64,000 nt of DNA from an uncultured Candidatus Micrarchaeota archaeon (GCA_903884505.1 CAISET010000015.1:10819-74818); one strand, 5' to 3'; numbered from the stretch's first letter, positions 34,228-64,000 are shown. The notes: generated by a model not told the origin, from the letters alone. Program-made: numbers and translations.

Positions 34228-34241
34228 GCCCCCTTTGATTT

Positions 34242-34700: not shown

Positions 34701-34752
34701 CGCCGCTCTGGCGGAGGAGCTTTCTATATTGTGTTAGTCTGGTTTAAAAACG

Positions 34753-40064: not shown

Positions 40065-40074
40065 GGGTGGAAAA

Positions 40075-43752: not shown

Positions 43753-43780
43753 TTAGCCCTTTTGGATGGCAACAAATTCA

Positions 43781-46115: not shown

Positions 46116-46922
46116 TTACTCTTCCTTCATCTCTTTTTCTATCTCCTCTTTTAAGCGTTCCTCTCTTCTCTTCTTTTCCTCAGAGGACATCCTCTCCGAT
46201 ACCTTCCTGGCGATCTCCTCCTTGAGCACCTTCGCGCGCTCCATCCGCTTTGCCTCATCATCGGTCGGCTTCGCCTCGGGCTGCGGTTTTCCCCCCGCTT
46301 CCGGCGCCTGGGACAACTGCTGTGCGGCGGCCGGCTTCCTCTCCTCCATCTTCTCAAACAGCGTCTTCCTCGGGGCCTTCCCCATGAGCTTGGCAAGCCG
46401 CTCCCCCATCAGGCGCCTCTGTTCCTCCTCGCTGACAGCCGCAGTTGGCGCCTTTACCTCGGGCCTGGTTGGCGGTGCGGCAGGCAGTATCTTCCGCTGC
46501 CCAGCAGGCTCGACTGGCCGCGGCGAAGGGGCCTCGGCGGCGGGCTTCTCCGCCTTTGCTGCGGGCTTCGCTTTGACCTCTTCCTCCGCGAACCTCCTCT
46601 TCATCTTCTCCAGCTCTTCCTGCCCACGCTTCTCCCCTTCCTCCGGCGAGACCCTCGCCGCGCGCGGCGCAGCAGCGGCAGCAGGCACCCGTCCCTGCAC
46701 CACCCCCAGCTTGGCCTCGATGCGCAGCGCATCCTCAAGCGCCTTGTCGAAGCTCATCACGGAGATTTCGGTCGGGTCCTTCTCCTCGAAAAGCGCGGCG
46801 CCGGCGAGCTTCTCCTTCGGGATCTCCGGCATCAGGACAAGCAGCCCCTCAAGCCTCTTCACCTCGGCAATCGCCTCGCTGAAAAGAGCCTGGTCCACGT
46901 TTGGCAGCCTTTCTTCCGGCAT
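46116..46922 (-). CDS. Highly charged K/E/A/P-rich low-complexity protein (pilus-operon accessory; unknown)
   Basis: 268 aa with EEEVKAKPAAKAEKPAAEA-type tracts. Lies between the ATPase and platform genes on the same strand. Confidence 0.4.
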   Translation of the reverse strand: MPEERLPNVDQALFSEAIAEVKRLEGLLVLMPEIPKEKLAGAALFEEKDPTEISVMSFDKALEDALRIEAKLGVVQGRVPAAAAAPRAARVSPEEGEKRGQEELEKMKRRFAEEEVKAKPAAKAEKPAAEAPSPRPVEPAGQRKILPAAPPTRPEVKAPTAAVSEEEQRRLMGERLAKLMGKAPRKTLFEKMEERKPAAAQQLSQAPEAGGKPQPEAKPTDDEAKRMERAKVLKEEIARKVSERMSSEEKKRREERLKEEIEKEMKEE

Positions 46923-48456: not shown

Positions 48457-49632
48457 CTAGCCCTTCTTCTCCCCCTCAACCTTCCAGATGTTCTTCATCG
48501 AGCCCTTCATCTCCTTCTGCTTGTGCTCGTATTTCTCCTTCTTCTTGTCCGTCTCGGCGAGCCTGCTCTTCGCATCTTCTATGCGCTTCAGGATCTCGTC
48601 CATCGTCATCTTCCCCTTTGAGAAGTCGAGCAGCCCCAGCCCCGAAATAATCTTCTCTAGCTGCTCGCTGATCTCCTTCTTCTCCTCCCGCATCCTCTTC
48701 AGCTCGGCATCGGTCCTGCGCAGCTTCTCAAGCCTGGCATCGAAATCCTTCACGACTGCCTCTGCGTCCGCAATCCTCTTGTCGAGCTCGGCTGACGCGC
48801 CCTTGACATCGGAGTCGGACTTCTTCCCGGCCCCCACGAACCCGCCAATCTTCTTCTCGAACTCGGCCCTGACCTTCTTCACGTCCGTTTCGGAATCCTT
48901 CAGCCTCTTCTCCAGGCCGGTTGCCCTCGCCTTCAGCTCCTCGTGCTCCTTCTCGCGCGCATCCAGCCTCTGCTCGATATCCTTGGACTTCTTCCCCACT
49001 TCCGCAACATAAGCGTCAAGCTCCTTCCTGAGCACCCTGAGCTGCTCCAGCTCGGGCCCCATGGCCGTCAGCGCAGCCTCGAGACCCTTGTCCTCCGCCT
49101 CAGAGCCTTCCGCAATCTTCGCCTCATCGTCAATCTGCGCCCTGAGCGCGACAATCCTCGACTCGAAGCCCTTAGAAAGTTCCGAAATCCTGAAGTTGAC
49201 CTCCTCCTTCTCCCTCTTCAGCTCGTGCATCTTCTCCAGCTGGTTCTTCACGCCGCCCATCTTGACCTCGAAGGCCTCGCTTATCTTCGAGAACTCGTCC
49301 TGCAGCGAATCCAGCTGCTTGCTCAGCTCCATAATCTCCTCGAGCTGCGATTCGCCCACCCTCACCGCTGCCGCGCGCCTGTCCGAAATCTCGGAGGCCT
49401 TCACCTCCATCTCCTCCTTCGTGCGCGCGACCCAGACAAGATAGACTTTCGTAAGCTGGTACTCGATTTTGATAAGCCCCTGCTCCTCGAGGACGGTCGC
49501 CCATTCCTCGAGCACCTGCCTCGACAGCCCCATCCTCAGGGCCGCCTCGTTTATGTCAATCCTCTGTTCTTCCCTGACAAGCTTTATGAACGCATCCACG
49601 CCGGTGCTTATCATTCCCAAATCGAGCGCCAT
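48457..49632 (-). CDS. Winged-HTH plus long coiled-coil protein, first gene of the pilus-assembly operon. The ORF track's alternative start is 49677.
   Basis: N-terminal ...GVDAFIKLVREEQRIDINEAALRMGLSRQVLEEWATVLEEQGLIKIEY (wHTH-like), then ~300 aa of heptad-rich E/K/L sequence. The internal ATG at 49632 lies ~22 bp downstream of the palindromic TATA region. Confidence 0.5.
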   Translation of the reverse strand: MALDLGMISTGVDAFIKLVREEQRIDINEAALRMGLSRQVLEEWATVLEEQGLIKIEYQLTKVYLVWVARTKEEMEVKASEISDRRAAAVRVGESQLEEIMELSKQLDSLQDEFSKISEAFEVKMGGVKNQLEKMHELKREKEEVNFRISELSKGFESRIVALRAQIDDEAKIAEGSEAEDKGLEAALTAMGPELEQLRVLRKELDAYVAEVGKKSKDIEQRLDAREKEHEELKARATGLEKRLKDSETDVKKVRAEFEKKIGGFVGAGKKSDSDVKGASAELDKRIADAEAVVKDFDARLEKLRRTDAELKRMREEKKEISEQLEKIISGLGLLDFSKGKMTMDEILKRIEDAKSRLAETDKKKEKYEHKQKEMKGSMKNIWKVEGEKKG

Positions 49633-49640
49633 GCCCAGAA

Positions 49641-49670
49641 CTTTTATTAATAGCATTAATAAGCTTTTAG
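49641..49670. promoter_or_regulatory. Bidirectional promoter with perfect palindrome TTATTAAT-AGC-ATTAATAA flanked by cttt/aagctttta
   Basis: The only AT-rich island between the divergent pilus-assembly operon (-) and the gene at 49696 (+). TATA-like halves sit ~25 bp from the starts on each strand. Confidence 0.5.
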
Positions 49671-49695
49671 GTGTCATTATAAACGTCGTGATGCC

Positions 49696-50802
49696 GTGGC
49701 ACTGAAAGAGCAGCTCCTTTCGACCGTTTTGAAGAAAGAGGAGCTGAGCCCCATCGAGCGGTTCAAGTTCGAAAGCCTGCTTTCTGACAAGTTCGGGAGG
49801 GATGGCCTGCGCGTCTATTTTCTCATAAACGGGATCAACACCGTGCAGCAGATGCTCTCGCAGACCGGAGTCAGCGAGAAGAGGCTCCTCGAAATCCTTA
49901 ATTTCGCGTCCGACAGCGGGGTCATCCGAATCGCGCCCACGCTTCTCGAGGACGTCCCTTCCGGGCCGGCCCCTGGCGTGGCGCCAGACATGGCGAGGGC
50001 GAAGGCAGGCGTCATGCCCACTCTCCGCTCATCCGCTGAGAAGAAGCTCTATGACCAGTTCGGCCAGCAGGGCGTTGATGTCTACCGGCTCATGGACAAG
50101 GTCAGCCTCCCTTCCGAAATCCTCTCCCGCATCCCAATCCAGGAGGCAAAGCTGCTCGAGATACTCAAATACATGCAGAAGGAGGGCCTCATCGGGCTGC
50201 AGGCCCCCGAGGAGGCGCCCGCCGAGATTGAAGAGGAGGAGATTCCCGCGCCAAGGGAGGAAGCCCCAAGGCCCGTTAAGGCGCAGATGCCCCCGAAGCT
50301 TCCAACCCAGGAGCTCGCGCTTCCCCCGCGGCCAGTCTACCTCCCAATAAAGAGGCAGCTCGGCCTTTTCGGAAAGCTGAAGATAGAGGCGGAGCTCATC
50401 AAAAGGTTCGGCCAGCACGGCATGCACCTCTACTCGCTCATAGACGGCGAGAGGACCACCATCAAGCTTTCCAAAATCTCCAGGTACCCGATGTCGCTCA
50501 TCGACAGCATGCTCGACATCCTTTCCGCGCACGGCGCAATCGAGCTGCGCGAGCTCACCGGGGACGAGATAAGGGAGCGCTACGGGGAGGAGGGGCTCGC
50601 AATCTACGACGTCTACGGCCGCGACGGCGTGCTCATCTACGAGATGATAGACAAGCGCGCCACAATCAAGGAGATAATAATGGCAAGCGGCCTCCCGCCC
50701 AAGCGCGGGGTTGAGATTTTCGCCTTCATCCACAAGATCCTCGGGCTCGAAATCCCGCTGGACACCAACATCCTCTACAGGCAGCTCGGGATAGAGGAAT
50801 AG
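49696..50802 (+). CDS. Protein of four ~50-85-aa internal repeats (unknown function; upstream partner of the giant pilin-like genes)
   Basis: GTG start, 368 aa. The repeats are LLSDKFGRDGLRVYFLINGINTVQQMLSQTGVSEKRLLEILNF.., KKLYDQFGQQGVDVYRLMDKVSLPSEILSRIPIQEAKLLEILKY.., ELIKRFGQHGMHLYSLIDGERTTIKLSKIS..SMLDILSAHG.., DEIRERYGEEGLAIYDVYGRDGVLIYEMIDKRATIKEIIMASG.. Confidence 0.5.
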   Translation: MALKEQLLSTVLKKEELSPIERFKFESLLSDKFGRDGLRVYFLINGINTVQQMLSQTGVSEKRLLEILNFASDSGVIRIAPTLLEDVPSGPAPGVAPDMARAKAGVMPTLRSSAEKKLYDQFGQQGVDVYRLMDKVSLPSEILSRIPIQEAKLLEILKYMQKEGLIGLQAPEEAPAEIEEEEIPAPREEAPRPVKAQMPPKLPTQELALPPRPVYLPIKRQLGLFGKLKIEAELIKRFGQHGMHLYSLIDGERTTIKLSKISRYPMSLIDSMLDILSAHGAIELRELTGDEIRERYGEEGLAIYDVYGRDGVLIYEMIDKRATIKEIIMASGLPPKRGVEIFAFIHKILGLEIPLDTNILYRQLGIEE

Positions 50803-50804
50803 CC

Positions 50805-53800
50805 ATGTCCCGAAACCGTGCCCAATCAGAACCCCCGATGCGCAGGCTTGAGTCGCCTTCGGCGATTGTGTCGCCTTCCGGCGACAGCTCGCCAACTTCG
50901 TTGGCGACTGCTGCGCAACTTCCGTTGCGCATCGCTCTTCGTTCCAACGCGATTTGCGCTTCGGCGCAAATGCGTCGCAGTTCGCCACCGAGGCGAACTT
51001 GCGAACGAACTCGCTCGCCGCGCATATCCAGTCGCCTTCGGCGACTGCCTGTTGCGCGTTGCGCAACATCGTCGGTTCCTGAACCTCCGCACATCAAAGG
51101 TCAGGCAGCCATAGAGTTTCTTATTACAAACGGCTGGGCCATCCTCGTCGTAGTCATCCTTCTCGCCGTCCTCTTCTACATAGGAGTTTTGAGCCCCCAG
51201 AACACCACGCCTAACACCTGTCTTTTCCAACCCGGCTTCTCCTGCTACACATTCAAAGTGGGAAATGTAACCGGTTCCCTGGAACTGGATTTTGGCCAGG
51301 CGACAGGCAAATCAATTCTAGTCACAGGAATCTCCTGCTCCCAGAACGCAACTGCCGCACTCCATACATCTCCCCTTGCGGAGGACATCACCGTCCCATC
51401 AGGCGAGCATCGCTGGATTGCCGGGGGAACTTCCAACAACAGCGGCATCATCTGCGAAGGCGCGACAGGCGTGGCAGGTAGCAGGTACAAGGGCACAGTC
51501 TGCGTAAATTACATCGAATCCGACGCCAACGCCCAAAGATTAATCTGCGGAGACATAAACGCGAGGCTTGAGCCGGCATCCATACCCCGCGGGAGCCCGA
51601 CAACTACGCCATACCCGACTCCGCCGCTAGGAGCGACTCCCATCACCGACTGCTCCTCCAGCCCCATCATAATCAGCTCTCCGGGCTATTACTACCTGAA
51701 CAGCAGCCTTACCTCAAGCGGCAACAACTGCATAGAAATAACCGCGGACGCCAGCAACTCCATCCTGGACTGCTATGGCCACAGCATAACCGGCACACCC
51801 TACAGTGGCGCGGGCATCTATCTGCAGGCCACCACTGGAGTAACTCTGAGGCATTGTGTCGTTAGCACATTCTATCAGGGCATTCTCCTGGGCCCTTCCT
51901 CCACTGGCAACATCATCACGGACAACACCGCCAGCTCGAACCAACATGGCATCTTCCTTCAGTCGGCCAACGGCAACACCATAACCGGCAACATTGCCAA
52001 TTCGAACGGCGACACGGGCATCTACTTCTTCTCCTCGAGCGACAACAACCTTACCGGCAATAACGCCCTTGCAAACAACGGCTACGGCATCTATACGGAC
52101 GGCAACTCGGCCAACAACCTGTTCACGGGAAATGCCGCCTGCTGGAACCGGAACCAGGACGTCCACTGCGACGTGTCCCAGAGCGAGGGCAATGATAACA
52201 TCTGCATGCCCTACGAGGAAACCGTCTGCTCGGGCAGCATCACCTGCAACCCCGTCTGTCCGGCTCCCCCGGCTCCCGCATGCGCGCCAGGCTTTGTGGT
52301 GAGTTCCTGCGACTGCGTGCTGAACGTTCCCGGCAATTACACGCTTGAAAGCGACCTGAATGAGACGCAGGGCGGCGACTGCATAGATATCATAGCAAAT
52401 GATTCGAACCTCGACTGCCAGCACCACAGCATCACGAGCCAAAGCGGCGGCACCGGCATAATGATAGTCAACTGGAATACCTATAGCATAAGCGGAGTGA
52501 GCGTTGAAAACTGCAACGCCAGCAACCTCTCATATGGAATTTACGCATACGGCGTGTACAACAGCACAATAACGGACAACATTGCCAGCGCGAACCAATA
52601 TGGCATCTTCATCCAGTCGTCCAGCGGCAACATCATCTCGGGCAACACCGCCAACTCGAACCCCAATACCAACATCTACCTCTCTTCCGCAACAGACAAC
52701 AACCTCACGGGCAACACTGCCCTCGCAAGCATCAACGGCTACGGCGTCTATGCGGACGGCAGTTCGAGCAACAACCTGCTCACGGAAAACTCCGCCTGCT
52801 GGAACCAATACGGGGACGTATACTGCGACGCGCCCCAAACTGAGGGCAACGGCAACATCTGCATGCCATACGAGGGAACCGCGTGCCTGGACAGCATCAC
52901 CTGCAACCCCACATGCCCATCGCCTTCCCCACCGGATTGCGCACCGGGCTGGGTGGTAAGCTCCTGCGGCTGCACGCTGAACATGCCTGGCAACTACACA
53001 CTGGAAAGCGACCTGAATTCCACGGGCGGCGACTGCATAGACATCACGGCAAATGGTGCGAACCTCGACTGCCAGCACCACAGCATCACAACCCAAGGCG
53101 GAGGCAACGGCATAATGATAGCCAACTGGAATACCGGCAGCATAAGCGAAGTGAGCGTTGAAAACTGCAACCCGAGCAACTTCAGCGTTGGCATCTACGC
53201 GTATGGCTTGAGCGGCGGCAACATGAGCGGCAACACCGCCAGCGCCAATTCCGAGGGCATGATGCTGCAGAACTCCAACGGCATTGAAATCACGGGCAAT
53301 ACCGCCAGCTCGAACTCCGATGTCGGCATCCTCCTATCGTCATCAAGCGACAACAACCTCACGGGCAATCACGCCACTGGGAACAACGGAATCGGCGGCA
53401 TCTATGCGGACTCCGGTTCCAGCAACAACCTACTCACGGACAACACCGCCTGCTGGAACACATATTATGGCATCTACTGTGATGCGCCCCAAACTGAGGG
53501 CAACGGCAACATCTGCATGCCATACGGGGAAACCGCGTGCTTGGGCAGCATCACCTGCAATTCCGAATGCCCGCCGCCTGAGCCGCCCGCCTGCGCCCCA
53601 GATTGGGTGGTGAATAGCTGCTCATGCATCCTCGGAGTGCCGGGAGATTATACGCTTGATTCCGACCTGCATTATTCGGACTACAGCGATTGCATAGACC
53701 TCTATTCCGGCGCAAGCGGCTCAACCCTCGACTGCCAGGGGCACAGCATAACCGGAGTTCCGGGCATGGGGCAGGGCATCGCACTCTGGTCCAATAACAT

Positions 53801-55514
53801 CACAGTCAGGAACTGCAACCTGGCCAATTTCAGCAACGGCATCGTTGCCTTCACCACCCACGGCAGCAGCATCATCGGCAACAACGTCAGTTCAACCGAC
53901 TATGGCATCTCCCTATGGTCTTCTTCAACCAACGATACTATTGCGGGCAACAACGCCAGCTTTAACATTTTTGGCATCACGCTGAGTTCGTCCAGTGGCA
54001 ACAACTTCACGGACAACATAGCCATGAACAACACTGCCACCGGAAATTCATTTGCCGACTTCTATTGCATATCGTCGGATTCAAACGGTGATTATGGCAA
54101 CGTCTGTGAAACGCAGGCTGGCTGCGAGTCGTGGCTCGGCTGCGGCCTTATGCCCGCCTGCAGTTCCAGCATCACAGAATGCTGCGTAATCAACTCCACT
54201 GGCTCATACTCGCTCGCGGACGATATCTCTGCCGCCGGCGACTGCATAAGCATCCTGCCCGGTGCTAACGGAGCGACGCTTGACTGCGGCGGCAAGACTA
54301 TTACGGGGCCGGGAAACAGCGGCAACGGAATCCAGTTGTTCGGCACAAGCGGAGTGACTGTGGAGAACTGCGGAGTCAGCGGCTTTATGTACGGCATAAG
54401 CTTGTCATCAGCAAACGGCAATGCAATAACAGGCAACAACGCCAGCTCAAACGGCCAGATCGGCATTTTAATGAGTGCATCAAACGGCAATGATATCACG
54501 GGCAACACAGCTAATTCAGACTATAGCGGCATCAGCATGTCGTATTCCGATGGCAACACGATAACCGGCAATACGGTCTCGAACGGCAACTCGAACGGCC
54601 AAGGTATCATTATGTCCCAATGCGATGGCAATGCCATAACCGGAAACACTGTCACCCTGAACTACTACGGTATTTACCTCTCGTATTCAACCGACAACAC
54701 AATCTCCGGCAATATCGCAAACTCGAACCACTTCGGCATCGAAATAGAGTACTCGAGCTACAACAACACCGTGACTGGCAACACTGCCTGCTGGAGCGGT
54801 GAACTGAATAAGAATATCTACTGCGATGTTGCCCAAAACGACGGCGGCGGCAACATCTGCGCACCTGAGGGCCCGAACACGGTCTGCTCGCACAACGTCT
54901 CCTGCGGTTCCGGATGCCCGCCGCCCCTTCCGCCCTCCTGCGCCCCCGGCTGGGTGATAAGTACCTGCCCATGCACCATCGGAGTGCCGGAGAGCTACAC
55001 GCTTGATTCGGACATTAATTACACGAACCCGTCTGGTGGAACCTGCATAACAGTGTCGGCAGGGGCCAGCGGCGCGACCATAAACTGCCAAGACCACAAC
55101 ATCACAGGCTCAGGAAGCGGCTTCGGCATCTCCCTTTACAGCGTCAACGGCATTAGTGTCGAGAACTGCAAAGTGAGCAACTTCAGCAAGGGCATCTACC
55201 TCAGTTACGCCAATGGCAACACCCTAACTAACAACATCGCCAGCTCGAACCACGATACCGGCATCATGATCGAAGGCTCCAACAACAACACCTTTACGGG
55301 CAACACCGCAAACCAGAACACCTACGAAGGCATGTACCTGCAGTACGGAAGCACAAACAACAACTTCACGGGCAATACGGCAATTGGCAACTCGGACTAC
55401 GACTTCATATGCAACAGCTTGAACTCCAACAATGACCTCGGCGGAAATGTATGCAGCAACCGAGATTCCTGCGGCCCGAACCCGCCCTATTGGCTCAACT
55501 GCACCGCACCGTAG
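50805..55514 (+). CDS. Giant pilin-like beta-helix protein B1. The class III signal ...HIKG|QAAIEFLITNGWAILVVV puts mature Gln at 51102. Five ~215-aa Cys-rich-linker + parallel beta-helix modules follow. The start codon is uncertain.
   Basis: 1569-aa ORF. The first 99 codons are read through hairpin element D, with no ATG/GTG/TTG just upstream of KG|Q. The module is ...ACWNxYGDVYCDAPQTEGNGNICMPYEGTAC..SITCNPxCPxPxPPxCAPGWVVSSCxCxLNxPGNYTLESDLN...DCQHHSIT...NNLTGNTA... (PbH1/NosD-like repeats). Confidence 0.65.
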   Translation: MSRNRAQSEPPMRRLESPSAIVSPSGDSSPTSLATAAQLPLRIALRSNAICASAQMRRSSPPRRTCERTRSPRISSRLRRLPVARCATSSVPEPPHIKGQAAIEFLITNGWAILVVVILLAVLFYIGVLSPQNTTPNTCLFQPGFSCYTFKVGNVTGSLELDFGQATGKSILVTGISCSQNATAALHTSPLAEDITVPSGEHRWIAGGTSNNSGIICEGATGVAGSRYKGTVCVNYIESDANAQRLICGDINARLEPASIPRGSPTTTPYPTPPLGATPITDCSSSPIIISSPGYYYLNSSLTSSGNNCIEITADASNSILDCYGHSITGTPYSGAGIYLQATTGVTLRHCVVSTFYQGILLGPSSTGNIITDNTASSNQHGIFLQSANGNTITGNIANSNGDTGIYFFSSSDNNLTGNNALANNGYGIYTDGNSANNLFTGNAACWNRNQDVHCDVSQSEGNDNICMPYEETVCSGSITCNPVCPAPPAPACAPGFVVSSCDCVLNVPGNYTLESDLNETQGGDCIDIIANDSNLDCQHHSITSQSGGTGIMIVNWNTYSISGVSVENCNASNLSYGIYAYGVYNSTITDNIASANQYGIFIQSSSGNIISGNTANSNPNTNIYLSSATDNNLTGNTALASINGYGVYADGSSSNNLLTENSACWNQYGDVYCDAPQTEGNGNICMPYEGTACLDSITCNPTCPSPSPPDCAPGWVVSSCGCTLNMPGNYTLESDLNSTGGDCIDITANGANLDCQHHSITTQGGGNGIMIANWNTGSISEVSVENCNPSNFSVGIYAYGLSGGNMSGNTASANSEGMMLQNSNGIEITGNTASSNSDVGILLSSSSDNNLTGNHATGNNGIGGIYADSGSSNNLLTDNTACWNTYYGIYCDAPQTEGNGNICMPYGETACLGSITCNSECPPPEPPACAPDWVVNSCSCILGVPGDYTLDSDLHYSDYSDCIDLYSGASGSTLDCQGHSITGVPGMGQGIALWSNNITVRNCNLANFSNGIVAFTTHGSSIIGNNVSSTDYGISLWSSSTNDTIAGNNASFNIFGITLSSSSGNNFTDNIAMNNTATGNSFADFYCISSDSNGDYGNVCETQAGCESWLGCGLMPACSSSITECCVINSTGSYSLADDISAAGDCISILPGANGATLDCGGKTITGPGNSGNGIQLFGTSGVTVENCGVSGFMYGISLSSANGNAITGNNASSNGQIGILMSASNGNDITGNTANSDYSGISMSYSDGNTITGNTVSNGNSNGQGIIMSQCDGNAITGNTVTLNYYGIYLSYSTDNTISGNIANSNHFGIEIEYSSYNNTVTGNTACWSGELNKNIYCDVAQNDGGGNICAPEGPNTVCSHNVSCGSGCPPPLPPSCAPGWVISTCPCTIGVPESYTLDSDINYTNPSGGTCITVSAGASGATINCQDHNITGSGSGFGISLYSVNGISVENCKVSNFSKGIYLSYANGNTLTNNIASSNHDTGIMIEGSNNNTFTGNTANQNTYEGMYLQYGSTNNNFTGNTAIGNSDYDFICNSLNSNNDLGGNVCSNRDSCGPNPPYWLNCTAP
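50827..51090. repeat. Hairpin-mosaic repeat element, copy D (8 mini-hairpins), inside the 5' end of the first giant pilin-like gene
   Basis: Starts cagaacccccgatgcgcaggcttga-GTCGCCTTCGGCGA... and ends ...GTCGCCTTCGGCGAC-tgcct-GTTGCGCGTTGCGCAAC-atcgtcggttcctgaac, as in copies A and B. Confidence 0.8.
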
Positions 55515-55586
55515 CCCATCCCTTCTCCTGCCCCACTCCGCCGCCATAGCCTGCATCCTCTCCGGCGCCTCAACTCCCAAATGCCC

Positions 55587-55602
55587 GAAAAGCCTTTTAA
55601 GC
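55587..55602 (+). promoter_or_regulatory. Promoter of B2 (gaaaagccttttaagc); TATA ends 24 bp before the GTG at 55624
   Basis: Shared motif aaa(a/g)cc(c)ttttaa(a/g), also found upstream of P1, B3 and B4. Confidence 0.5.
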
Positions 55603-55623
55603 ACTCTTCCGCCAACCTTAGCG

Positions 55624-57075
55624 GTGGTTCCCTTGGGAGAGAAGCGCGCTCAATCGGCTCTTGAATTTCTCATGACCTACGGCTGGGCCATAGTACTCAT
55701 ACTCGCCGCCATCGCAGCCCTCTACTACTTCGGATTCTTCGAATCCACCCGCTACGTCCCGAGGAGCTGCACGCTGCAGCCCGCGCTTCCGTGCGACACC
55801 TACGTGATGGGCTACAACGCGAGCGCCACCGAGCCGCTCTCCTTCAAGATGCTGAGCCACAACGGCCTCGGTTCCGACATAAACCTCACCGGCTTCTCCA
55901 TAAGCGTTGAAAACATCGGAGGGGTGGGGACGAACACCTACCAGGGCGCATGCTCCAGCTATGACAACACCACCCAAACAATCTCCTCGCTCACGCATCC
56001 GGGCAATCTCATCATCTGCGATGCAGACATACCGGACACGGACCGCATCCCGCGCATCGGCGATCCGGTCCGCTTCACGATAACAATGTATTACGTCAAC
56101 TGCGAAACCGACCCGAACTACCACACGACGGGCTCCTGCTTGGGAGGCACCGCGCACACCGTGCAGGGCTCGGTGAACACGCAGCTCGAGTACGAGCACG
56201 AAATGCCCTACCCCACCCCATGCTGCCCGCTCCCAACCCCGTCCCCAACTGCCAGCCCATCCCCGTCACCTTCGCCAACTGCAAGCCCGTCCCCAAGCCC
56301 CTCACCTTCGCCAAGCCCATCGCCTTCGCCCAGCCCTTCCGTGACCCCATCCTCTTGCCCGACTGGAGGCGGAACCATATTGGCCTGCCCATGCACCATA
56401 CACGGGGCGGGCACGTATACTTTGGGCGATGATCTGAACCCGAATCCAGACGGCTTCACCTGCCTGGTAGTGCAAAGCGATTCCGACAATGCAGTAATCA
56501 ACTGCGATGGCCATAACATCACGGGCCCAGGCGATTTCGGCGTTGTCGTATATGCCAACGGCGTCACCCTTGAGGGCTGCAACATACATCAGTACGGGAA
56601 GGGCATCGTGACTTACGGCAACAACACCATCATAACGAATAATAGGATGACCGAGGGCGACATAGGGATAGACCTTGAAAGCAACGGAAACCGCGTAACC
56701 GGCAACAACGCATCACACAATGGCTATCCCTTAGTTGCCGGCACTGGACTCATAGTAGGCGGCTCCAACAATGTGATTGAGAACAACTATTTCGATTCGA
56801 ACTGGGGCGGCACCGGTTCCTACGAAGGGGGCATTGGCATCGACATAGAAGGGTCGTCGGCAAGCGGCAACAATTTCACAAACAACGAGGCCATCGGGAA
56901 CAACTACTGGGGCGTTTACCTCGGCTATCTCACCCACACCGATAACAGGTTCACGGGCAACACGGCGACCGGCAACCCGCACGGAGACTTCAAATGCAAT
57001 TCGGCAAGCGCCATAGACGGTGACAACATCTGCTCGGACGATCAAGGCTGCAGCAGCTGGCTCCACTCCTGTTGA
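55624..57075 (+). CDS. Pilin-like beta-helix protein B2 (GTG start; alternative TTG at 55633). Class III signal ..EKRA|QSALEFLMTYGWAIVLILAAI.
   Basis: ~480 aa: a conserved ~170-aa post-pilin domain shared with B3/B4 (DTSRY(I/V)PRxC.LQP.L.C..., NCE(A/T)DP(D/N)YHTTG.C), an (SP)n linker, a Cys knot, then parallel beta-helix repeats (..VTGNNASHNGY.., ..FTNNEAIGNNYWG.., ..FTGNTATGNPHGDFKCNS..). Confidence 0.7.
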   Translation: MVPLGEKRAQSALEFLMTYGWAIVLILAAIAALYYFGFFESTRYVPRSCTLQPALPCDTYVMGYNASATEPLSFKMLSHNGLGSDINLTGFSISVENIGGVGTNTYQGACSSYDNTTQTISSLTHPGNLIICDADIPDTDRIPRIGDPVRFTITMYYVNCETDPNYHTTGSCLGGTAHTVQGSVNTQLEYEHEMPYPTPCCPLPTPSPTASPSPSPSPTASPSPSPSPSPSPSPSPSPSVTPSSCPTGGGTILACPCTIHGAGTYTLGDDLNPNPDGFTCLVVQSDSDNAVINCDGHNITGPGDFGVVVYANGVTLEGCNIHQYGKGIVTYGNNTIITNNRMTEGDIGIDLESNGNRVTGNNASHNGYPLVAGTGLIVGGSNNVIENNYFDSNWGGTGSYEGGIGIDIEGSSASGNNFTNNEAIGNNYWGVYLGYLTHTDNRFTGNTATGNPHGDFKCNSASAIDGDNICSDDQGCSSWLHSC

Positions 57076-57150
57076 CCCCAAAAGCCAGCCTGAACAGCCT
57101 TCCGCCATTTCCCCGCAGTGGCGTCCTTGCGCAGAACCGGCAAAAGCGCC

Positions 57151-57166
57151 AAAAACCCTTTTAAAT
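57151..57166 (+). promoter_or_regulatory. Promoter of B3 (aaaaacccttttaaat); TATA ends 26 bp before the GTG at 57190
   Basis: Lies inside the ORF-track ORF (57118 start), which argues for the downstream GTG/TTG start. Confidence 0.5.
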
Positions 57167-57189
57167 CACCTTCTGCCCAGTCTTCCCGG

Positions 57190-60100
57190 GTGGTCCCTTT
57201 GAAGAACAGCGGGCAGTCGGCACTTGAGTTCCTCATGACCTACGGTTGGGCCCTACTCGTGGTATTGGTCTTCATCTCCGCCCTCTACCTATTCGGCGTA
57301 TTCGACACGAGCCGCTACATCCCGAGGCAGTGCTACCTGCAGCCCGGGCTCGAATGCACCTCCTTCAAGATGATGAAAAACGAGAGCAACATGACGGTCG
57401 AATTTTCGGGCCGCAACGACTTCGGCTATGACATCGGGTTCGCAAACAACACGGCGACGCTGTTGGCCGAGAACATAGGGGGGATAGGCAAGAACAATTA
57501 CACCGGCACCTGCTCACCCTCCATAGTAAGGGCGGGCACCACCTACACCTGCATCATCAACATCACGGACAATGCGCGCGTCCCCGCGCTCGGCGAAATG
57601 CGCAGGATGTCGCTTTCATTGGGTTTCAAGAACTGCGAGGCCGATCCGGACTACCACACGACCGGCGACTGCTTCACGGTTCTTGCGCAAGACCACACGC
57701 TCACGGGTGAAATCGCCACGCAGATGGAAAACTACCAGAGCCTCAGCCTCTGCGGCAACGGCATATGCGATGACAACCTCGGAGAGACCAATGACACCTG
57801 CTCCCAGGACTGCAACGTCACCGCCGTGGGCCTGCAGATAGCCGCAGACCCGCAAGCCATACCGGCCGACGGCACCTCCTCCTTGCTGGTAACGGTAACA
57901 GTCCTGGACATATTCAGCCACCCCATCGAGGGCGCCTTGGTCCATTTCGAGAAGAACACCAGCGTGGGCTCTTTCAACGTTGACAGCAACACCACCGATG
58001 CGAACGGCCAGGCGACCGTCACCCTGACTTCCGGCAACAGCGAGGCGCAGGTGCAGATAAACGCAACATCCGACACCGCGACGGGCAGCACGGTCGTCGC
58101 CTTCACCTTCGGCTGCGGCGTGATTATCTCGGAGGACACAAACCTCACGGACGACCTTTCCTCCACCAGCCCCGGCTGCTGCATCATCATCGCGGCGGAC
58201 GGCGTAACGCTTGACGGCATGGGCCACACCATTTCCGGCGGCGGCGTCGGGAACGGCGTTTGCGCAATCAACCGCACCGGCGTGACCGCCAAGAACCTCA
58301 GGCTTGCAAGCACCAACTACGGGATATACTTTGAGAACACGAACGACAGCTTCATCACGGGCAACAACGCAACCCCGGACAACGAATACGGCATCATCCT
58401 TAACCTCTCCAACGGCAACAGCCTCTCCGGCAACACCGCCAGCAGCAACGGCGCATACGGCATCTTCCTCACCGCCAGCGCATTCAACATCTTCACGGGC
58501 AACAACATCACCAACAATTCCGGCGACGGCATCTCCCTCGCGAGCAACAGCAATTCCAACAACTTCACCGGCAACAACGTAACCTACAACACGGGGAACG
58601 GCATACGCCTGGACTCCATCAGCAATAGCAACCTCACGGGCAACCGCGTCTGCAGCAACACCGTCTCGGACTTCAGCTGCTCCGGCTCGGCCAACAACCC
58701 GGATGGCAACGTTTACGACACCAACTCCGGCTGCACGGAGATTACGCAGACCGTGGACTGCGCAGGCGAGCACACCATCAATGACTGCACCACGGTTTCC
58801 TCCTCCGGCACATGGCACGTGGGACGGGACATAGGGTTCACGGGCGGCACCTGCTGCATCAACATCACCGCAGACAACGTCGTGATTAACGGCTCCAGCT
58901 ACTCCATCACCGGCGACAACGCCACAGGAAGCATGGGCGTGTGCACGTACGACAAGCAGGGCATCACGGTCGCGGACCTGACCACTGCTTCGGTGCAATA
59001 CGGAATCTATTTCTCCAACACGCAAAGCAGCATTATAACGCGCTGCAATGCCAGGAATACGCTCAGCGGGAGCGGCATCCGCCTTGATTACTCCAATTCA
59101 AACAACATCACGGGCACCAACGTGACCTCGAACGATGCAGCCGGCGTCCCGCGCAATGGTGCCATCTACCTGAACAACTCGGACAGCAACAGGATTACCG
59201 GGAGCAATGCAAGTTCGAACAGCGCGGGAGGCATCCTGCTGCATTATTCCGACAGCAACACCATCTCAGGCAACACTGTCACTTCGAATTCGGGGCCTAG
59301 CGTAGGAGGCATTTACCTAGATGGCAGCAACAGCAACAGCATAACGGGCAATACTGTCAGCGGGAATAGCGACGGCATAGGATTGTTAGGTAATGTGGAG
59401 CCCCCCTACGCCTACTGCTGCAACTCCAACACCGTCTCGGGCAACAGCGTTACAAACAACGGCGTAGGCATCGGCCTAGACTGCAGCGGCGGGACAGGCG
59501 ACGGCCGCAACAACGTCATCTCAGACAACAACATCTGGTCAAACAGCGACAACGGCATTGGCATAACTTCTTCCATACTCGATACCACAATACTGAGGAA
59601 TAACATCACCTACAATACCCATGGCATCGAAGCAATTTTCGGCATGGGCGGCTCTTACATGACAATCGCAGGGAATAACATAAGTTCGAATTCGTTAAGC
59701 GGCATCGTCATAGAAGATGGCGATGTGAACACCATAGCAAACAACACCGTCAATTCGAATAGCCTCGGCGGCATCCGGCTTCACTACTCGACGGGCAATA
59801 CCCTAACGAACAACACATTTAATTCAAATACGGAGACCGGCATATGGCTGCAAAATTCCAACAACACCCAACTCAGCAACAACACGGCCTGTTTCAACTC
59901 CGTAATAGACTTCAATTGCAGCGAAGGCGCGACCAACGACTGGGGCAACAACTTCTACGATTACAACTCAGGGTGCGGCATATTCCAAATCGCCAACTGC
60001 TCATTCTCGCCAATCAGCGACTGCGGCATAATCTCCTCCAGGGGAAACTATTACCTGACGGATGATATCACATTCACGGGCTCCGGCTGCTGCATCAACA

Positions 60101-60465
60101 TAACGTCAGACAACGTCCTCCTCGATGGGAAGTACAAGTCCATAGGGGGCAATGGCAACGGGTACGGGGTCTGCGCCACCGGGAGGCTGAACGTGACGGT
60201 CCAGAATGCCACCGTGTGGGGCACTGAATACGGCATCTACTTCGACGGGACGAACAGCAGCTACATCCTAACCGACATCATGAGCGGGAACACCTATGAC
60301 ATATACGCGCTCTCATCCATCAGCAACACGATTGCAAACAACCTTGCCTGCTCAAGCGATCCCAGTTGGGGCCTCTATTGCTCCGGCTCGAGCGGCACCT
60401 TCACCGATAATAGCTGCAATAACCAGAGCGGATGCGGCGCCACCTGCTCACCCTGCGTGGACTAG
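57190..60465 (+). CDS. Giant pilin-like beta-helix protein B3 (GTG 57190 or TTG 57199: MKNSG|QSALEFLMTYGWALLVVLVFI)
   Basis: ~1090 aa: pilin N-domain, Big_1-like Ig domain (LQIAADPQAIPADGTSSLLVTVTVLD...ANGQATVTLTSG), then three long parallel beta-helix repeat arrays (..GNNxT.N.GxGI.L..S.SN..TGN..), each preceded by a Cys-rich segment. Confidence 0.7.
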   Translation: MVPLKNSGQSALEFLMTYGWALLVVLVFISALYLFGVFDTSRYIPRQCYLQPGLECTSFKMMKNESNMTVEFSGRNDFGYDIGFANNTATLLAENIGGIGKNNYTGTCSPSIVRAGTTYTCIINITDNARVPALGEMRRMSLSLGFKNCEADPDYHTTGDCFTVLAQDHTLTGEIATQMENYQSLSLCGNGICDDNLGETNDTCSQDCNVTAVGLQIAADPQAIPADGTSSLLVTVTVLDIFSHPIEGALVHFEKNTSVGSFNVDSNTTDANGQATVTLTSGNSEAQVQINATSDTATGSTVVAFTFGCGVIISEDTNLTDDLSSTSPGCCIIIAADGVTLDGMGHTISGGGVGNGVCAINRTGVTAKNLRLASTNYGIYFENTNDSFITGNNATPDNEYGIILNLSNGNSLSGNTASSNGAYGIFLTASAFNIFTGNNITNNSGDGISLASNSNSNNFTGNNVTYNTGNGIRLDSISNSNLTGNRVCSNTVSDFSCSGSANNPDGNVYDTNSGCTEITQTVDCAGEHTINDCTTVSSSGTWHVGRDIGFTGGTCCINITADNVVINGSSYSITGDNATGSMGVCTYDKQGITVADLTTASVQYGIYFSNTQSSIITRCNARNTLSGSGIRLDYSNSNNITGTNVTSNDAAGVPRNGAIYLNNSDSNRITGSNASSNSAGGILLHYSDSNTISGNTVTSNSGPSVGGIYLDGSNSNSITGNTVSGNSDGIGLLGNVEPPYAYCCNSNTVSGNSVTNNGVGIGLDCSGGTGDGRNNVISDNNIWSNSDNGIGITSSILDTTILRNNITYNTHGIEAIFGMGGSYMTIAGNNISSNSLSGIVIEDGDVNTIANNTVNSNSLGGIRLHYSTGNTLTNNTFNSNTETGIWLQNSNNTQLSNNTACFNSVIDFNCSEGATNDWGNNFYDYNSGCGIFQIANCSFSPISDCGIISSRGNYYLTDDITFTGSGCCINITSDNVLLDGKYKSIGGNGNGYGVCATGRLNVTVQNATVWGTEYGIYFDGTNSSYILTDIMSGNTYDIYALSSISNTIANNLACSSDPSWGLYCSGSSGTFTDNSCNNQSGCGATCSPCVD

Positions 60466-60473
60466 CCTTTCAT

Positions 60474-60487
60474 AAGCTTTTTTAAAC
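60474..60487 (+). promoter_or_regulatory. Promoter of B4 (agcttttttaaaca); TATA ends ~26 bp before the GTG at 60511
   Basis: Same box and spacing as for B2/B3. Confidence 0.5.
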
Positions 60488-60510
60488 ACCCTGCTGCCAA
60501 TTTCCGTACT

Positions 60511-62142
60511 GTGATAGCTCCGGGAAAAAGGCACGGGCAATCCGCGATTGAATTGCCTTCGGCAATAGCTCGCAGATCGCACGGGCAATCTGCGATTGAA
60601 TTCCTCGCCACGTACGGCTGGGCCCTCCTCATCATCCTCGTATTCATCGCCGCCCTATACCTATTCGGCGTATTCGACACGAGCCGCTACATCCCGAGGC
60701 ACTGCTCACTGGAGCCCGGGCTCGAGTGCTCCTCCTTCAAGATGATGAAGAACGACACGTACATCACCGTGGTCTTCTCGGGCTACAACGGCCTCGGCTA
60801 CGACATAGGGTTCGATGCCGGCACCGCAACCCTGATGGCCGAGAACATAGGGGGCATAGGCAAGAACAACTACGTGGGCACGTGCTCTCCATCCCTGGTC
60901 AGGAAAGGGACGCCCTATACCTGCGTAATCATCACCAAGGACATGAACCGAACCCCTGCGCTCGGAGAGGCACGAAGGATGGGCATCTCACTCACATACA
61001 AGAACTGCGAGACAAATCCCGCCTACCTCGCAAACCGCACGGCAGCCAACTGCGCCGCCCCGCTCGCCCAGAGCCGCACGGTCACGGGCGAAATGGCCAC
61101 CCAGATGGAAAGCTATTCCGACACCCTATGCGGGAACGGAATCTGCGACGACAACCTGGGGGAAACCGCTTCAAACTGCCCGGCCGACTGCCTGCCCCGG
61201 CCATTCAGCATGCACCTCGCCTCCAACCAGTCCGCCATAACGGCAAACGGCTCCTCCTCGCTTCTGACAGCGACCCTCTTCGACCAGTTCGGCAGCCCGC
61301 TCCCCGACTTCGAGGTTGATTTCAGCCAGAACTCCACCGATGGGTCGCTCGATTCCAGCTCGGGCACCACGAACGACACCGGGCAGGCCAGCGTCACCCT
61401 CACCTCGGGAACAACCCCGCAGTGGGTGCTCGTGAACGCGACGGCGGGCTCGGCATCCGGGATTACGGTCGTGGTCTTCACAGGGGCCGCCCCGACTCCA
61501 ACTCCTACCCCAACCCCCACACCAACTGCAACTCCGACGCCAACGCCCACACCTACTCCAACCCCCACGCCGACCCCAACTCCGGCACCGACCTGTCCCG
61601 ATTCCGGGCAAACGGAGTTAACGACTTGCACCGGAACGCCGATTTCGAGTGCCGGCACATACGTCATGTGCCACAATCTCACATCTTGCACGGGCTTTAC
61701 GATAGGCGCAGACAACGTTTTGCTGGACTGCCAGGGTTACTCGTTGATCGGCTCCGGGAGCGGAACAGGCATGTACATGCTCGACCGCACCGGAGTGAAC
61801 GTGACTAACTGCAACATTCAGAGCTTCAGCTTAGGCATGTATCTCAACGGCGGCAGCGGCAGCCATGGCTGCAGGGTTACAAACAACAACTTCACAAGTG
61901 ACACCACTGCAATGCAGGTATGGCATTCATCATACAGCAACCTAATCCAGAACAACAGGATTACGGGCGCCACGAATGGGTTTTATGTCGCCTTGAGTGC
62001 CTCTAGCAACACATTCACAAACAACATCGGAACGAGCAACACTTACGACTTTATCTGCGCTAGCGAAGGATCTGGCAACACCGCCACCGGGAACACCTGT
62101 ACCTACCGCGATTCCTGCACCTGGGTCGATTGCGGATCGTGA
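60511..62142 (+). CDS. Pilin-like beta-helix protein B4 (GTG 60511 or TTG 60553). The leader carries a 24-bp duplication around a TTCG hairpin.
   Basis: MIAPGKRHGQSAIELPSAIARRSHG|QSAIEFLATYGWALLIILVFI. Same N-domain and Big_1-like domain as B3 (78% identical stretches), a (TP)n linker, a Cys knot and a short beta-helix array. Confidence 0.7.
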   Translation: MIAPGKRHGQSAIELPSAIARRSHGQSAIEFLATYGWALLIILVFIAALYLFGVFDTSRYIPRHCSLEPGLECSSFKMMKNDTYITVVFSGYNGLGYDIGFDAGTATLMAENIGGIGKNNYVGTCSPSLVRKGTPYTCVIITKDMNRTPALGEARRMGISLTYKNCETNPAYLANRTAANCAAPLAQSRTVTGEMATQMESYSDTLCGNGICDDNLGETASNCPADCLPRPFSMHLASNQSAITANGSSSLLTATLFDQFGSPLPDFEVDFSQNSTDGSLDSSSGTTNDTGQASVTLTSGTTPQWVLVNATAGSASGITVVVFTGAAPTPTPTPTPTPTATPTPTPTPTPTPTPTPTPAPTCPDSGQTELTTCTGTPISSAGTYVMCHNLTSCTGFTIGADNVLLDCQGYSLIGSGSGTGMYMLDRTGVNVTNCNIQSFSLGMYLNGGSGSHGCRVTNNNFTSDTTAMQVWHSSYSNLIQNNRITGATNGFYVALSASSNTFTNNIGTSNTYDFICASEGSGNTATGNTCTYRDSCTWVDCGS

Positions 62143-62320: not shown

Positions 62321-64000
62321 ATGCTATTCGTCAGCAGGGTGAAGCTGAGGAACTTCAAGAGCTTCCGCTTCGCGGACATACCGCTGGCAAGGGGGTTCAC
62401 GTGCCTAGCTGGTCCCAATGGATCGGGGAAGTCGAATGTCGTCGACAGCCTTAGGTTCGCGTTCGGCGAGCTGAGCCTGAAGGGGCTCCGGGCGAAGAGG
62501 ATTCCGGACCTGATTACAACCGGCGCCGAGAAGGCGGAGATAACCGTCTTCCTTGACGGGGAGAAGAAGTACGAGATTAAGCGCGCAATCAGAGGGGACG
62601 GCAAGACGCTCTACAAGCTCAACGGGAAGAGGACGACGCGCACGGCCGTGCTTGACGTCCTGCGGCCGCACGGCCTGGAGGAGAGCGGCCACAACGTAAT
62701 CGCCCAGGGCGAGGTGCAGCGCTTCATAGACCTTAATGCGAAGGAAAGGCGCGAGATAATCGACCGCGTGGCAGGCATCTCGGAGTTCGAGGACAAGAAG
62801 AAGGAGTCCCTGAGCGAATTGGGGAAGGTCGAGCAGAAAATCAACGACGCAACAATCGTGATGAAGGAGAGGGAAGGCTTCCTCACCGAATTGGAGAAGG
62901 AGAAGGACGACGCGCTGAAATACAAGGAGGCCGCGGACTCCCTCCGCCTCTCGAAGGCATCGCTCCTACATTCGGAATTGAACAAAACCGATTCAGAGCA
63001 CACGAAAGTCTCGGAGAAATACCTCGAGCTGAAGGGGAAGGAAGACGAGATAAAGAACGCGACCGAGGCGCTTGACGGGCAGATTACTGAGCTTGAGACG
63101 AAGAAATCCGCAATAGTCAAGGAGATAAACGAGAAGGGGGAGCGCGAGAAGAGCGGCCTCGTGAGCCAGGTGCAGGAGCTGCAGACGCAGATAAGCGTCG
63201 CAACCGCAAACCGCTCAGAGAAGGAGAAGGAGGCCGCAAGAATAAAGGAGAAGCAGAAGGCCCTTTCGGAAGAACGGAAGGAGCTTGAGGGGAAAGTCTC
63301 GAAGTTCGATTCCGATTCCACCGACCTGAAGGGGCAAGCCGCCTCATTCCTGGATTCCATCACCGCCTTCCTGAAAGAAAAAAACATCGTGCTCAAGGAC
63401 GCGGAAGAGATGGGAAGGCATTTCGGCGATTTGAAGAAGAAGGCCTCGGACCTCTCGAAGAAGATTGAGGAGAAGCGCTCGGCCCGCTCCGCCGCTGAAG
63501 TCGAGGCGGAGAAGCTGATGGCGAAGAAAGGCTTGCTGGAGGCCGAGCTCTCCAGGCTCGCTTCCTCCGCCTCCTCCCCGAACGAGGCGAGGCGCAAGGA
63601 GCTCAATTCCCAGCTGAAGGCGATTGGCGAGGAGCTTTCCTCCCTTGACCAGCAGCTCGAGAAGCTCTTCTCCCAGGAGAAGGAGTTCAACAGGAAGGTC
63701 CCGGAGCTCGAGAAGAAATTCCTCGAGGCCCGCGACAAATACACGACGGCCGCAACGAAGCTCTCGGCCCACAAGGAGTCGCCCGAGCAGCAGGCGGTCA
63801 CGGCCGTCCTGGAGCTCAAGGAGCGCGGCATGCTTCCCGGAGTCCACGGCACCGTCGGCGACCTGTGCAAGTTCAAGGACGACGTCGCAGTCGCAATCGA
63901 GGCTTCCGCAGGCCCGCGCCTGAATTATATTATTGTCGATTCCGCAGACGTCGCCTCCAAGGCGATAGAATATTTGAAGCAGAGGAGAATGGGCCGCTGC
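62321..64000 (+). CDS. smc: Chromosome segregation protein SMC (N-terminal 560 aa; continues beyond the window)
   Basis: MLFVSRVKLRNFKSFRFADIPLARGFTCLAGPNGSGKSNVVDSLRFAFGE (SMC N-terminal Walker A head), then a long coiled coil. No stop within the window, so it is absent from the ORF track. Confidence 0.9.
   Translation, partial: MLFVSRVKLRNFKSFRFADIPLARGFTCLAGPNGSGKSNVVDSLRFAFGELSLKGLRAKRIPDLITTGAEKAEITVFLDGEKKYEIKRAIRGDGKTLYKLNGKRTTRTAVLDVLRPHGLEESGHNVIAQGEVQRFIDLNAKERREIIDRVAGISEFEDKKKESLSELGKVEQKINDATIVMKEREGFLTELEKEKDDALKYKEAADSLRLSKASLLHSELNKTDSEHTKVSEKYLELKGKEDEIKNATEALDGQITELETKKSAIVKEINEKGEREKSGLVSQVQELQTQISVATANRSEKEKEAARIKEKQKALSEERKELEGKVSKFDSDSTDLKGQAASFLDSITAFLKEKNIVLKDAEEMGRHFGDLKKKASDLSKKIEEKRSARSAAEVEAEKLMAKKGLLEAELSRLASSASSPNEARRKELNSQLKAIGEELSSLDQQLEKLFSQEKEFNRKVPELEKKFLEARDKYTTAATKLSAHKESPEQQAVTAVLELKERGMLPGVHGTVGDLCKFKDDVAVAIEASAGPRLNYIIVDSADVASKAIEYLKQRRMGRC

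Follow-up and report, generated by a model that had tools for sequence, protein, structure and literature searches.

What function may be served by proteins that begin like small pilins and run on for as many as ~1470 residues? The question is raised by four genes in a 64,000-nucleotide (nt) stretch of DNA (hereafter the window) from an uncultured archaeon that is a relative of the Micrarchaeota (DPANN), the pilus-type ATPase encoded in it being 51–71% identical to ATPases of Micrarchaeota and other DPANN loci. These genes, designated B1–B4, are co-oriented paralogues on the + strand at 50805–62142, and all four open reading frames (ORFs) are intact over 11.3 kb, as they are in several samples. 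Their description as four paralogous 'mega-pilins' in a first-pass annotation of the window is supported by the ORFs, by an N-terminal motif present in all four, and by a shared domain. We consider it fairly probable that B1–B4 are modular type IV pilins with an adhesive display role, judging from domain architecture, homology, predicted folds, promoter motifs, synteny, the pattern seen across a wider family, and purifying selection, from which we infer processing, incorporation into a filament, display, and binding.

The N-terminal motif reads (K/R/H/S)(G/A)|Q-x-A-x-E-F-L-x-T-(Y/N)-G-W-A, where the bar marks the predicted cleavage site, and is followed by a hydrophobic stretch of ~25 amino acids (aa). 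Positively charged and of the class III type, the leaders finish in G or A ahead of Q1 (KRA|Q, NSG|Q, SHG|Q, and IKG|Q); among 31 family members, Q1 and E5 are invariant, and L7, Y10, W12, C40, and C48 are nearly so. Behind the signal lies a domain of ~150 aa with conserved Cys residues, which is 70% identical between B3 and B4 and 43% identical between B3 and B2. The first-pass annotation had recognized this domain as common to B2, B3, and B4, and its sharing was confirmed. It extends to B1 as well, which the annotation had not mentioned: the N-domain of B1 (51102–51629, +), comprising the alpha-1 helix and a Cys-containing beta domain followed by a Pro-rich linker, aligns with the other three at 22–24% identity, with the same Cys positions and under the same profile. 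When modelled together with 31 relatives (predicted local distance difference test (pLDDT), 91; predicted template-modelling score (pTM), 0.79), the B3 N-domain consists of a helix at residues 2–26 and then a beta-sandwich; the neighbours of the model include solved archaeal filament proteins (FlaF, the Pyrobaculum pilin, Aap, and archaellins), at scores no better than those of other Ig-like folds.

An exhaustive HMMER search with a profile of five N-domains recovered 6699 proteins at E ≤ 1e-3, of which 43 reached E ≤ 1e-30, whereas a word-indexed protein search with the B3 N-domain returned one full-length relative and ten helix-only matches; the rarity of the family suggested by the latter is therefore misleading. 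Many of the proteins found are stand-alone pilins of ~150–200 aa (M-x-K-(G/A)-Q-x-A-x-E-F-L-M-T-Y-G-W-A...), which match profile positions 1–150, and ~25 clusters of >500 aa (up to 2134 aa) match the profile over its full length. When eight members of these large clusters were scanned, Big_1 was found right after the N-domain in seven, and NosD and/or Beta_helix in five. The N-domain shares homology along ~150 aa with thousands of stand-alone pilins and amounts to a complete pilin module, going beyond a signal peptide. On motif, profile, and context, and without a curated family, B1–B4 may be filed as pilins, and the family to which they belong appears to be an existing but undescribed and uncharacterised group of archaeal modular pilins.

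Downstream of the pilin module, the four proteins are assembled from different parts. B1 (50805–55514, +), as delineated by ORF, Pfam, and module alignment, encodes a pre-pilin with a 98-aa leader, the pilin domain, and six beta-helix modules; the predicted mature protein of ~1470 aa begins at Q (51102), and the product is 99.9% identical to database protein P0055. In B2 (GTG, 55624–57075, +), a Pro/Ser/Thr linker joins the pilin module to one beta-helix module (56335–57072); a protein database look-up returned no exact record of a 480-aa version of B2. B3 (GTG, 57190–60465, +; 99.7% identical to database protein P0012) continues from the pilin module into a Cys knot, Big_1 (57838–58104), and three beta-helix modules (about 58090–58734, 58723–59967, and 59965–60432). 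B4 (GTG, 60511–62142, +) has a leader with a duplicated cleavage motif, the pilin module, a Cys knot, Big_1 (61213–61464), a (TP)n linker (61492–61590), and one beta-helix module (61579–62109), the linker before the single module being of (PS)n or (TP)n type in B2 and B4. The Big_1-like domain reported earlier for B3 and B4 was recovered by Pfam (E 5e-13 and 3e-12, respectively). The Cys knot between the pilin domain and Big_1 is a four-Cys motif of ~25 aa, CG(N/D)GxC...GE....CP.DC (57739–57816 in B3, in the form CGNGxCDDNLGE..C..DC, and 61120–61200 in B4), which is nearly invariant family-wide (alignment columns C180, C185, C196, and C200) and has no Pfam assignment. In line with the modular pilins defined by Raynaud et al. 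(2021), whose pilin module is followed by one or more recognisable domains without a dedicated pilus function, Big_1 and NosD/Beta_helix/para_beta_helix domains follow the pilin domain both here and in the relatives.

The beta-helix prediction was upheld by several approaches, namely Pfam (NosD/Beta_helix; E 1e-93 for B1, 2e-51 for B3, and 2e-8 for B4), NCBIfam (para_beta_helix repeats; 16 in B1, 6 in B3, and 2 in B2), an AlphaFold model, and matches to solved structures. B2 has no Pfam match; it is recognised at 3e-40 by a hidden Markov model (HMM) of the B1 modules, and its para_beta_helix score is 32 bits against a cut-off of 19.45. Alignment and HMM resolved B1 into six tandem modules (51630–52235, 52236–52892, 52893–53546, 53547–54140, 54141–54893, and 54894–55511, +) of 198–251 aa each, and not the five counted in the first pass. 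The Cys/Pro opening C-x-x-x-C-P-x-P-x-P-P-x-C-A-P, formerly ascribed to each of them, is confined to modules 2, 3, 4, and 6; module 5 opens with a short variant, and module 1 comes after the Pro-rich linker. The intragenic duplication itself is upheld, but it can hardly be called recent, as pairs of modules are 39–68% identical in protein and only 66–79% in DNA. The model of module 2 (pLDDT 88, pTM 0.87) is a right-handed beta-helix with ~7 rungs in ~170 aa.

Beta-helices of this kind could also belong to displayed polysaccharide-modifying enzymes, that is, a depolymerase, lyase, or epimerase that opens the glycan coat of a host. Indeed, the best solved neighbours of B1 module 2 in Foldseek are phage tailspike depolymerases, AlgG/AlgE epimerases, GH87 glucanase, and alginate lyases (template-modelling score relative to target, 0.1–0.3), and the module profile matches NosD at 5e-16 and AlgG at 1e-8 among PDB sequences; a profile was needed for this, as phmmer with two B1 modules found no match there. 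However, only the generic Beta_helix, NosD, and para_beta_helix models were hit, with no glycoside hydrolase or lyase family at E < 0.01. A NosD function was rejected with TIGR04247 scores of 140, 84, and 21 bits, far under the cut-off of 300, and no nos genes in the window, so that just the CASH beta-helix fold is held in common with NosD, and C5-epimerase with an AlgG equivalog score of 20 bits against 700 and no D-x-H-[DE] motif in any of the four proteins. Moreover, the modules fall short of the 10 or more rungs and the cleft-forming loops of the enzymes, and six near-equivalent modules suggest a scaffold or avidity role rather than catalysis. The glycan-degrading activity proposed in the first-pass annotation was accordingly not substantiated, there being no lyase or hydrolase family match, no D-P-H-D motif, and only short modules, and we regard an enzymatic role as quite improbable.

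With pilus assembly genes next door and a wider family of the same architecture, surface display for adhesion is the reading that fits best, and the members of the family are most likely adhesins. A T2SSE ATPase (46932–48443, −; Pfam 1e-38), 2.4 kb from B1–B4, two TadC/FlaJ-like genes (44136–45128 and 45125–46111, −; Pfam T2SSF 2e-16, with precomputed T2SSF assignments on both 328-aa genes), and a minor-pilin/LamG operon all lie within 11 kb, and the whole set is syntenic in other assemblies. The operon consists of small pilin-like genes (ATG 39534, 39979–40539, 40536–41177, and 41153–41671, +) and ends with the gene for a 690-aa pilin-like LamG protein (41680–43752, +). A class III signal peptidase, encoded outside the window, would cut before Q, and the neighbouring ATPase and the two TadC-like platform proteins would insert the pilin module into a pilus built mainly of small pilins with the same alpha-1 helix. 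B1–B4 would be low-abundance, tip- or surface-exposed subunits presenting long acidic beta-helix stalks; in each protein, the Ig-like beta-sandwich of the pilin module (~150 aa, disulfide-stabilised) would be joined to the Cys-capped beta-helix modules by a linker or by the Cys knot plus Big_1. Presumably, the stalks, which are probably N-glycosylated, attach to glycans or proteins on the surface of a partner cell or of a substrate.

On the main rival reading, the same N-termini might mark cell-envelope proteins, in which the class III signal and helix act as an anchor or a short pseudopilus and the arrays lie in the cell coat, in a bindosome-like manner. That surface proteins other than pilins can carry class III signal peptides is established (bindosome; 10.64898/2026.04.22.720090), bulky subunits of 1000–1470 aa are hard to pack into a filament body, and strong promoters (see below) suggest abundance. 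The best support comes from a related locus, L058, where a beta-helix repeat protein with a Sec-type signal (2–1819, −) occupies the position of B1 beside the pilus genes, after a homologue of the 368-aa protein encoded directly upstream of B1 and divergent from the ATPase. Yet in B1–B4 the signal forms part of a complete pilin module with thousands of stand-alone homologues, close linkage of the genes to assembly genes is seen in two organisms, and bindosome proteins sit with ABC transporters and carry solute-binding domains, none of which are found in B1–B4. Envelope proteins seem to us a rather unlikely explanation.

With regard to expression, boxes resembling a transcription factor B recognition element (BRE) and TATA box, of the form aaaaNCC(C)TTTTAA, are located 22–25 nt 5' of the GTG in B2 (GAAAAGCCTTTTAAG; 55587–55601, +; 22 nt), B3 (CAAAAACCCTTTTAAA; 57150–57165, +; 24 nt), and B4 (CATAAGCTTTTTTAAA; 60471–60486, +; 24 nt, and kept in the orthologue at the related locus L165). 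In leaderless archaeal promoters, where transcription begins at the start codon itself, the centre of the BRE/TATA box lies about 26–28 nt upstream of that codon. The spacing here is as expected for leaderless archaeal transcripts, and the boxes, which are kept before both the B3-like and the B4-like genes of L165, are plausible strong promoters of the leaderless type. The same box with the same spacing precedes the first small pilin gene (box 39495–39511, +; ATG 39534) and an unrelated gene at 6844, so that it would be a generic strong archaeal promoter and not peculiar to the paralogues. Of what the first-pass annotation had said on this point, the common box of three genes and its absence from B1 were borne out, while the mixture of GTG and TTG starts was not, all three genes starting with GTG. 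A scan for sigma-70 promoters and intrinsic terminators was discarded as irrelevant to archaea, its sites being fewer or no more than in shuffles.

B1 lacks a recognizable promoter of its own, and has an odd 5' end, because its leader contains a modular palindromic repeat element of 265 nt with about nine hairpins (50827–51090, +), which lies in frame and had previously been missed. Its ATG (50805) is situated two bases past the stop of the upstream gene, with a GAGG-like motif before it. Thus B2–B4 would be expressed from their own leaderless-type promoters, and B1 would be read from the transcript of the 368-aa gene, with which it is probably co-transcribed, through the in-frame element.

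The dense N-x-S/T sequons that had been taken to predict heavy N-glycosylation did not stand out once composition was considered. Mature B1–B4 contain 1.5–3.7 sequons per 100 aa, against 0–0.6 in the cytoplasmic and membrane proteins of the window, but shuffling at the same N/S/T-rich composition gives an equal density, with only B3 at +1.9 standard deviations; it is therefore compositional, with no signal of selection beyond composition. Elsewhere in the window, the 690-aa LamG protein has 5.5 and a 3456-aa giant protein has 2.6 sequons per 100 aa.

Comparison with relatives separates a conserved from a changing part. The N-domain of B1 is 84–96% identical in P0025, P0029, P0031, and P0033, whose total lengths range over 778–1757 aa and whose arrays are 42–59% identical, and conserved N-domains with differing arrays occur in other lineages too (P0022/P0027 and P0035/P0036). 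The pilin module thus appears to be a constant carrier, and the beta-helix array the variable part, which differs in module number and sequence between close relatives. Shufflon-like switching of the C-termini was considered and rejected, as the genes all point the same way, have their own promoters, and are not separated by inverted repeats. The tandem cluster is not unique to this genome, since L165 shows the same order of a LamG-like gene, a B3-like gene (1515 aa), and a B4-like gene; B4 is 53% identical to its L165 counterpart, with a ratio of nonsynonymous to synonymous substitution rates (dN/dS) of 0.34–0.40, indicating that the genes are under purifying selection. When 80 related ATPase loci were screened within 10 kb, none combined a class III motif with a beta-helix. 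In a set of 257 complete pilin-like ORFs from the loci analysed, with a median length of 145 aa, 26 reach 300 aa or more and one reaches 1000 aa or more; the cluster in the window is at the extreme end of this distribution.

These results also bear on whether the genes are decaying or silent, the repeat-ridden island being no longer functional and B1 having been inactivated by its 5' element. B1 does lack its own promoter and carries a highly structured leader insert, gene callers start it downstream of the helix, and one assembly has different genes after the 368-aa gene. Nevertheless, the four ORFs are intact, and the B1 insert is in frame and free of stops, although chance alone would give this roughly 1 time in 5, most frames of the element being open. 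Several samples contain an identical sequence, the promoter boxes are conserved, and dN/dS is 0.34–0.40 for B4. We consider decay highly improbable.

Some observations weigh against B1–B4 being pilins for adhesive display. Curated pilin or class-III-signal models gave no Pfam match (up to E = 5) and no NCBIfam match on the N-termini; Pfam at E ≤ 5 on the N-domains and the small pilins likewise gave nothing meaningful. No prepilin peptidase was found among 30 ORFs of the window, nor does the window contain a small stand-alone pilin with the QxAxEFLxTYGWA helix, so that the filament partner is unseen. Moreover, strong consensus promoters are unexpected for low-abundance subunits, and B1 would need the removal of a 98-aa leader, far longer than usual.

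Of all features of the locus, the least expected are the in-frame elements in the leader peptides, which make the leaders of B1 and B4 atypically long. The first 98 codons of B1 are not protein-like and hold the palindromic element, whose RNA folds at −139.7 kcal/mol (z −7.7). Copies occur at four loci in 64 kb, namely 34241–34363, 34540–34703, 43780–44090 (degenerate), and 50827–51090; the first two flank the gene for tRNA-Cys (34470–34540, −), each between a TATA-like box and the gene it precedes. Rfam detected only this tRNA-Cys in the window, and no Rfam family matches the element. Its ends are conserved (CAGAACCCCCGATGCG... and ...CATCGTCGGTTCCTGAAC), with imperfect terminal inverted repeats (CAGAACCCCCGATG / CATCGTCGGTTCCTG) and a variable number of internal c(UUCG)g-type hairpins, and GCCTTCGGC occurs 9 times against 1.4 expected. 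No transposase was identified for the element, and no short target duplication surrounds its full copies. The B1 insert is present at 99.9% identity in the independent samples L083/L085, by which an assembly artefact was rejected as the origin of the long leader; the close relatives of B1 are devoid of the element and have ordinary leaders, for example, MKRG|QAAIEFL.

The B4 leader contains an in-frame hairpin insert (60531–60602, +) bounded by 24-nt direct repeats (60531–60554 and 60579–60602), which are identical at 23 of 24 positions and both encode HGQSAIE; between them stands the hairpin AATTGCC-TTCG-GCAAT (60551–60566) plus AGCTCGC, and the resulting peptide is HGQSAIE-LPSAIARRS-HGQSAIEFL. 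An in-frame hairpin with a duplicated GQ motif is also found in the small pilin gene starting at 39534 (39549–39614, +; KGQASID-SPSAKARRLL-GQASMELL), and both inserts represent a single hairpin module of the family of the B1 element, with 16 codons from GQ to GQ. At the corresponding site (6520–6640), the B4 orthologue of L165 carries three modules of this family, and its two motif copies (QSAFE/QSAFE) resemble each other more closely than they resemble the copies of the window (QSAIE/QSAIE), which points to independent or recent insertion, or conversion. An intergenic copy at 43976 begins with GGGCAAAGCGCCATTGAG (GQSAIE) and then continues into a hairpin.

The same layout with unrelated hairpins was found at other Micrarchaeota loci (L012, ~15400; L040, ~13204; L043, ~8860; L063, ~6281). 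Second cleavage-type motifs occur in the leaders of database proteins P0064, P0069, P0083, P0125, and P0136, and extended leaders without a clear second motif in P0065 and P0142. Leader inserts were present in about 7 of 292 pilin-like N-termini of the loci analysed; the duplication of cleavage-site codons flanking them measures ~21–24 nt, and five of seven inserts fold better than 97% of shuffles. It is possible, and we put it forward only tentatively, that such hairpin elements preferentially colonise prepilin cleavage-site codons as a 'safe harbour', where a duplication of ~22–24 nt regenerates (K/R)G|Q-x-A-x-E-F-L downstream and the encoded peptide is discarded with the leader. The inserts may be either a new target-specific, gene-sparing mobile element or selected RNA structures in the only dispensable coding part of leaderless pilin mRNAs. 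The closest known counterparts are Rickettsia palindromic elements and BOX/REP repeats (PMC10969869), which are also short, palindromic, and multicopy and insert in frame without destroying genes, and pneumococcal BOX elements are likewise modular, with conserved ends and a variable number of internal hairpins; in contrast to these, the elements here are archaeal (DPANN), use one type of site (the cleaved leader), and are accompanied by a codon duplication of ~22–24 nt, with no transposase identified.

Among the known systems closest to B1–B4 are bacterial modular pilins, in which grafted adhesion modules are established, with adhesion experimental for Streptococcus sanguinis PilB and inferred for >1200 proteins (PMC8179133). 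PilB and PilC of S. sanguinis, CofB, and ComZ likewise combine a pilin carrier, a linker, and an effector module and are encoded in a pilus locus; their effectors include the beta-solenoid of ComZ and the ConA-like lectin of PilC, and the 690-aa protein of the window similarly has a LamG/ConA-like domain. By contrast, the proteins of the window have an archaeal class III signal (Q1...E5, EppA/FlaK-type), a predicted Ig-like beta-sandwich in place of the bacterial alpha-beta roll, and up to six effector modules in 1470 aa (family maximum, 2134 aa) against the survey extreme of 860 aa, and they occur as four tandem paralogues. By this analogy, B1–B4 would be a large archaeal version of the modular-pilin principle.

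The layout of one ATPase, two platform genes, and many pilins is that of 'system 1' or clade 1, known from methanogens, Thermococcales, and DPANN (10.64898/2026.04.22.720090; PMC4858521). The Epd-type/'system 1' pili of Methanococcales, Thermococcales, and DPANN in these studies similarly have an ATPase, two TadC/FlaJ-like genes, many pilins, and large LamG/DUF2341-type putative adhesins, with leaders ending in G/A followed by Q; there, however, small pilins and large adhesins are separate, whereas B1–B4 unite beta-helix arrays and a full pilin module in one polypeptide, and both surveys name 'beta-helical sheets' and large signal-peptide proteins only in general terms. The Sulfolobales bindosome shares a pilin-type N-terminus on functional non-filament proteins and a type-IV-pilus-like ATPase and platform pair, but its proteins consist of signal, helix, and solute-binding domain and accompany ABC transporters, while B1–B4 have the whole pilin domain and accompany assembly genes. 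NosD/CASH proteins and archaeal surface-layer beta-helix proteins (Jing et al. 2002, as cited in PMC5498576) are similar in having parallel beta-helix repeats of ~22 residues and in being extracellular and carbohydrate-associated; the modules here differ in scoring below the NosD subfamily cut-off, in lacking a nosZ/nosFY context, and in being short, Cys-capped, and arranged in tandem on a pilin.

The remaining genes around the cluster are as follows. A 268-aa gene (46116–46922, −) lies between the platform genes and the ATPase, and a coiled-coil/winged-helix protein (48457–49677, −) and the 368-aa protein (49696–50802, +) are encoded between the ATPase and B1. The latter consists of four ~80-aa repeats (FGxxGxxVYxLIDGxxT...), has only a sub-threshold Pfam match and no NCBIfam match, and is kept beside the pilus ATPase in other Micrarchaeota (L058). 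In two assemblies, ERZ1426813 and ERZ1426565, an identical 368-aa gene is followed 429 nt on by another gene in place of B1: in ERZ1426813, genes for a 157-aa protein, an acylphosphatase, and a glycosyltransferase replace B1–B4, and in ERZ1426565, a short contig, a partial 116-aa gene alone follows. This variant reflects either replacement at the repeat element in particular strains or chimerism in the assemblies. The 690-aa protein has a C-terminal LamG/ConA-like domain and a partial NCBIfam match to 'TafC fimbrial protein'; since its counterpart in L004 (11145–14624, −; >1160 aa) contains a beta-helix segment, modularity extends to this second large protein of the locus. In Micrarchaeota strain Mia14, too, LamG proteins have been noted in linkage with pilus loci. 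Farther away, a 3456-aa ORF (12917–23287, +) with a Sec-like N-terminal hydrophobic stretch and one weak Pfam match (Big_13) probably encodes one of the giant surface proteins that are common in DPANN genomes. On the other side, an SMC (chromosome segregation) gene (62340–64000, +) starts about 200 nt past B4, marks the end of the cluster, and runs off the window.

DPANN archaea, including Micrarchaeota, spend their lives attached to other cells, and host recognition and attachment are usually ascribed to pili and large surface proteins (PMC5498576). Adhesin-like arrays fused to a complete pilin module beside a pilus motor would link the two. The 'modular pilin' principle would be extended from bacteria to archaea, at much larger size, and the hairpin elements in the leaders would, provided that they are target-specific, add a new case of selfish DNA that makes use of a discarded part of a protein. 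With a conserved carrier and arrays that vary in module number, B1–B4 and their relatives may offer concrete candidates for determinants of host specificity.

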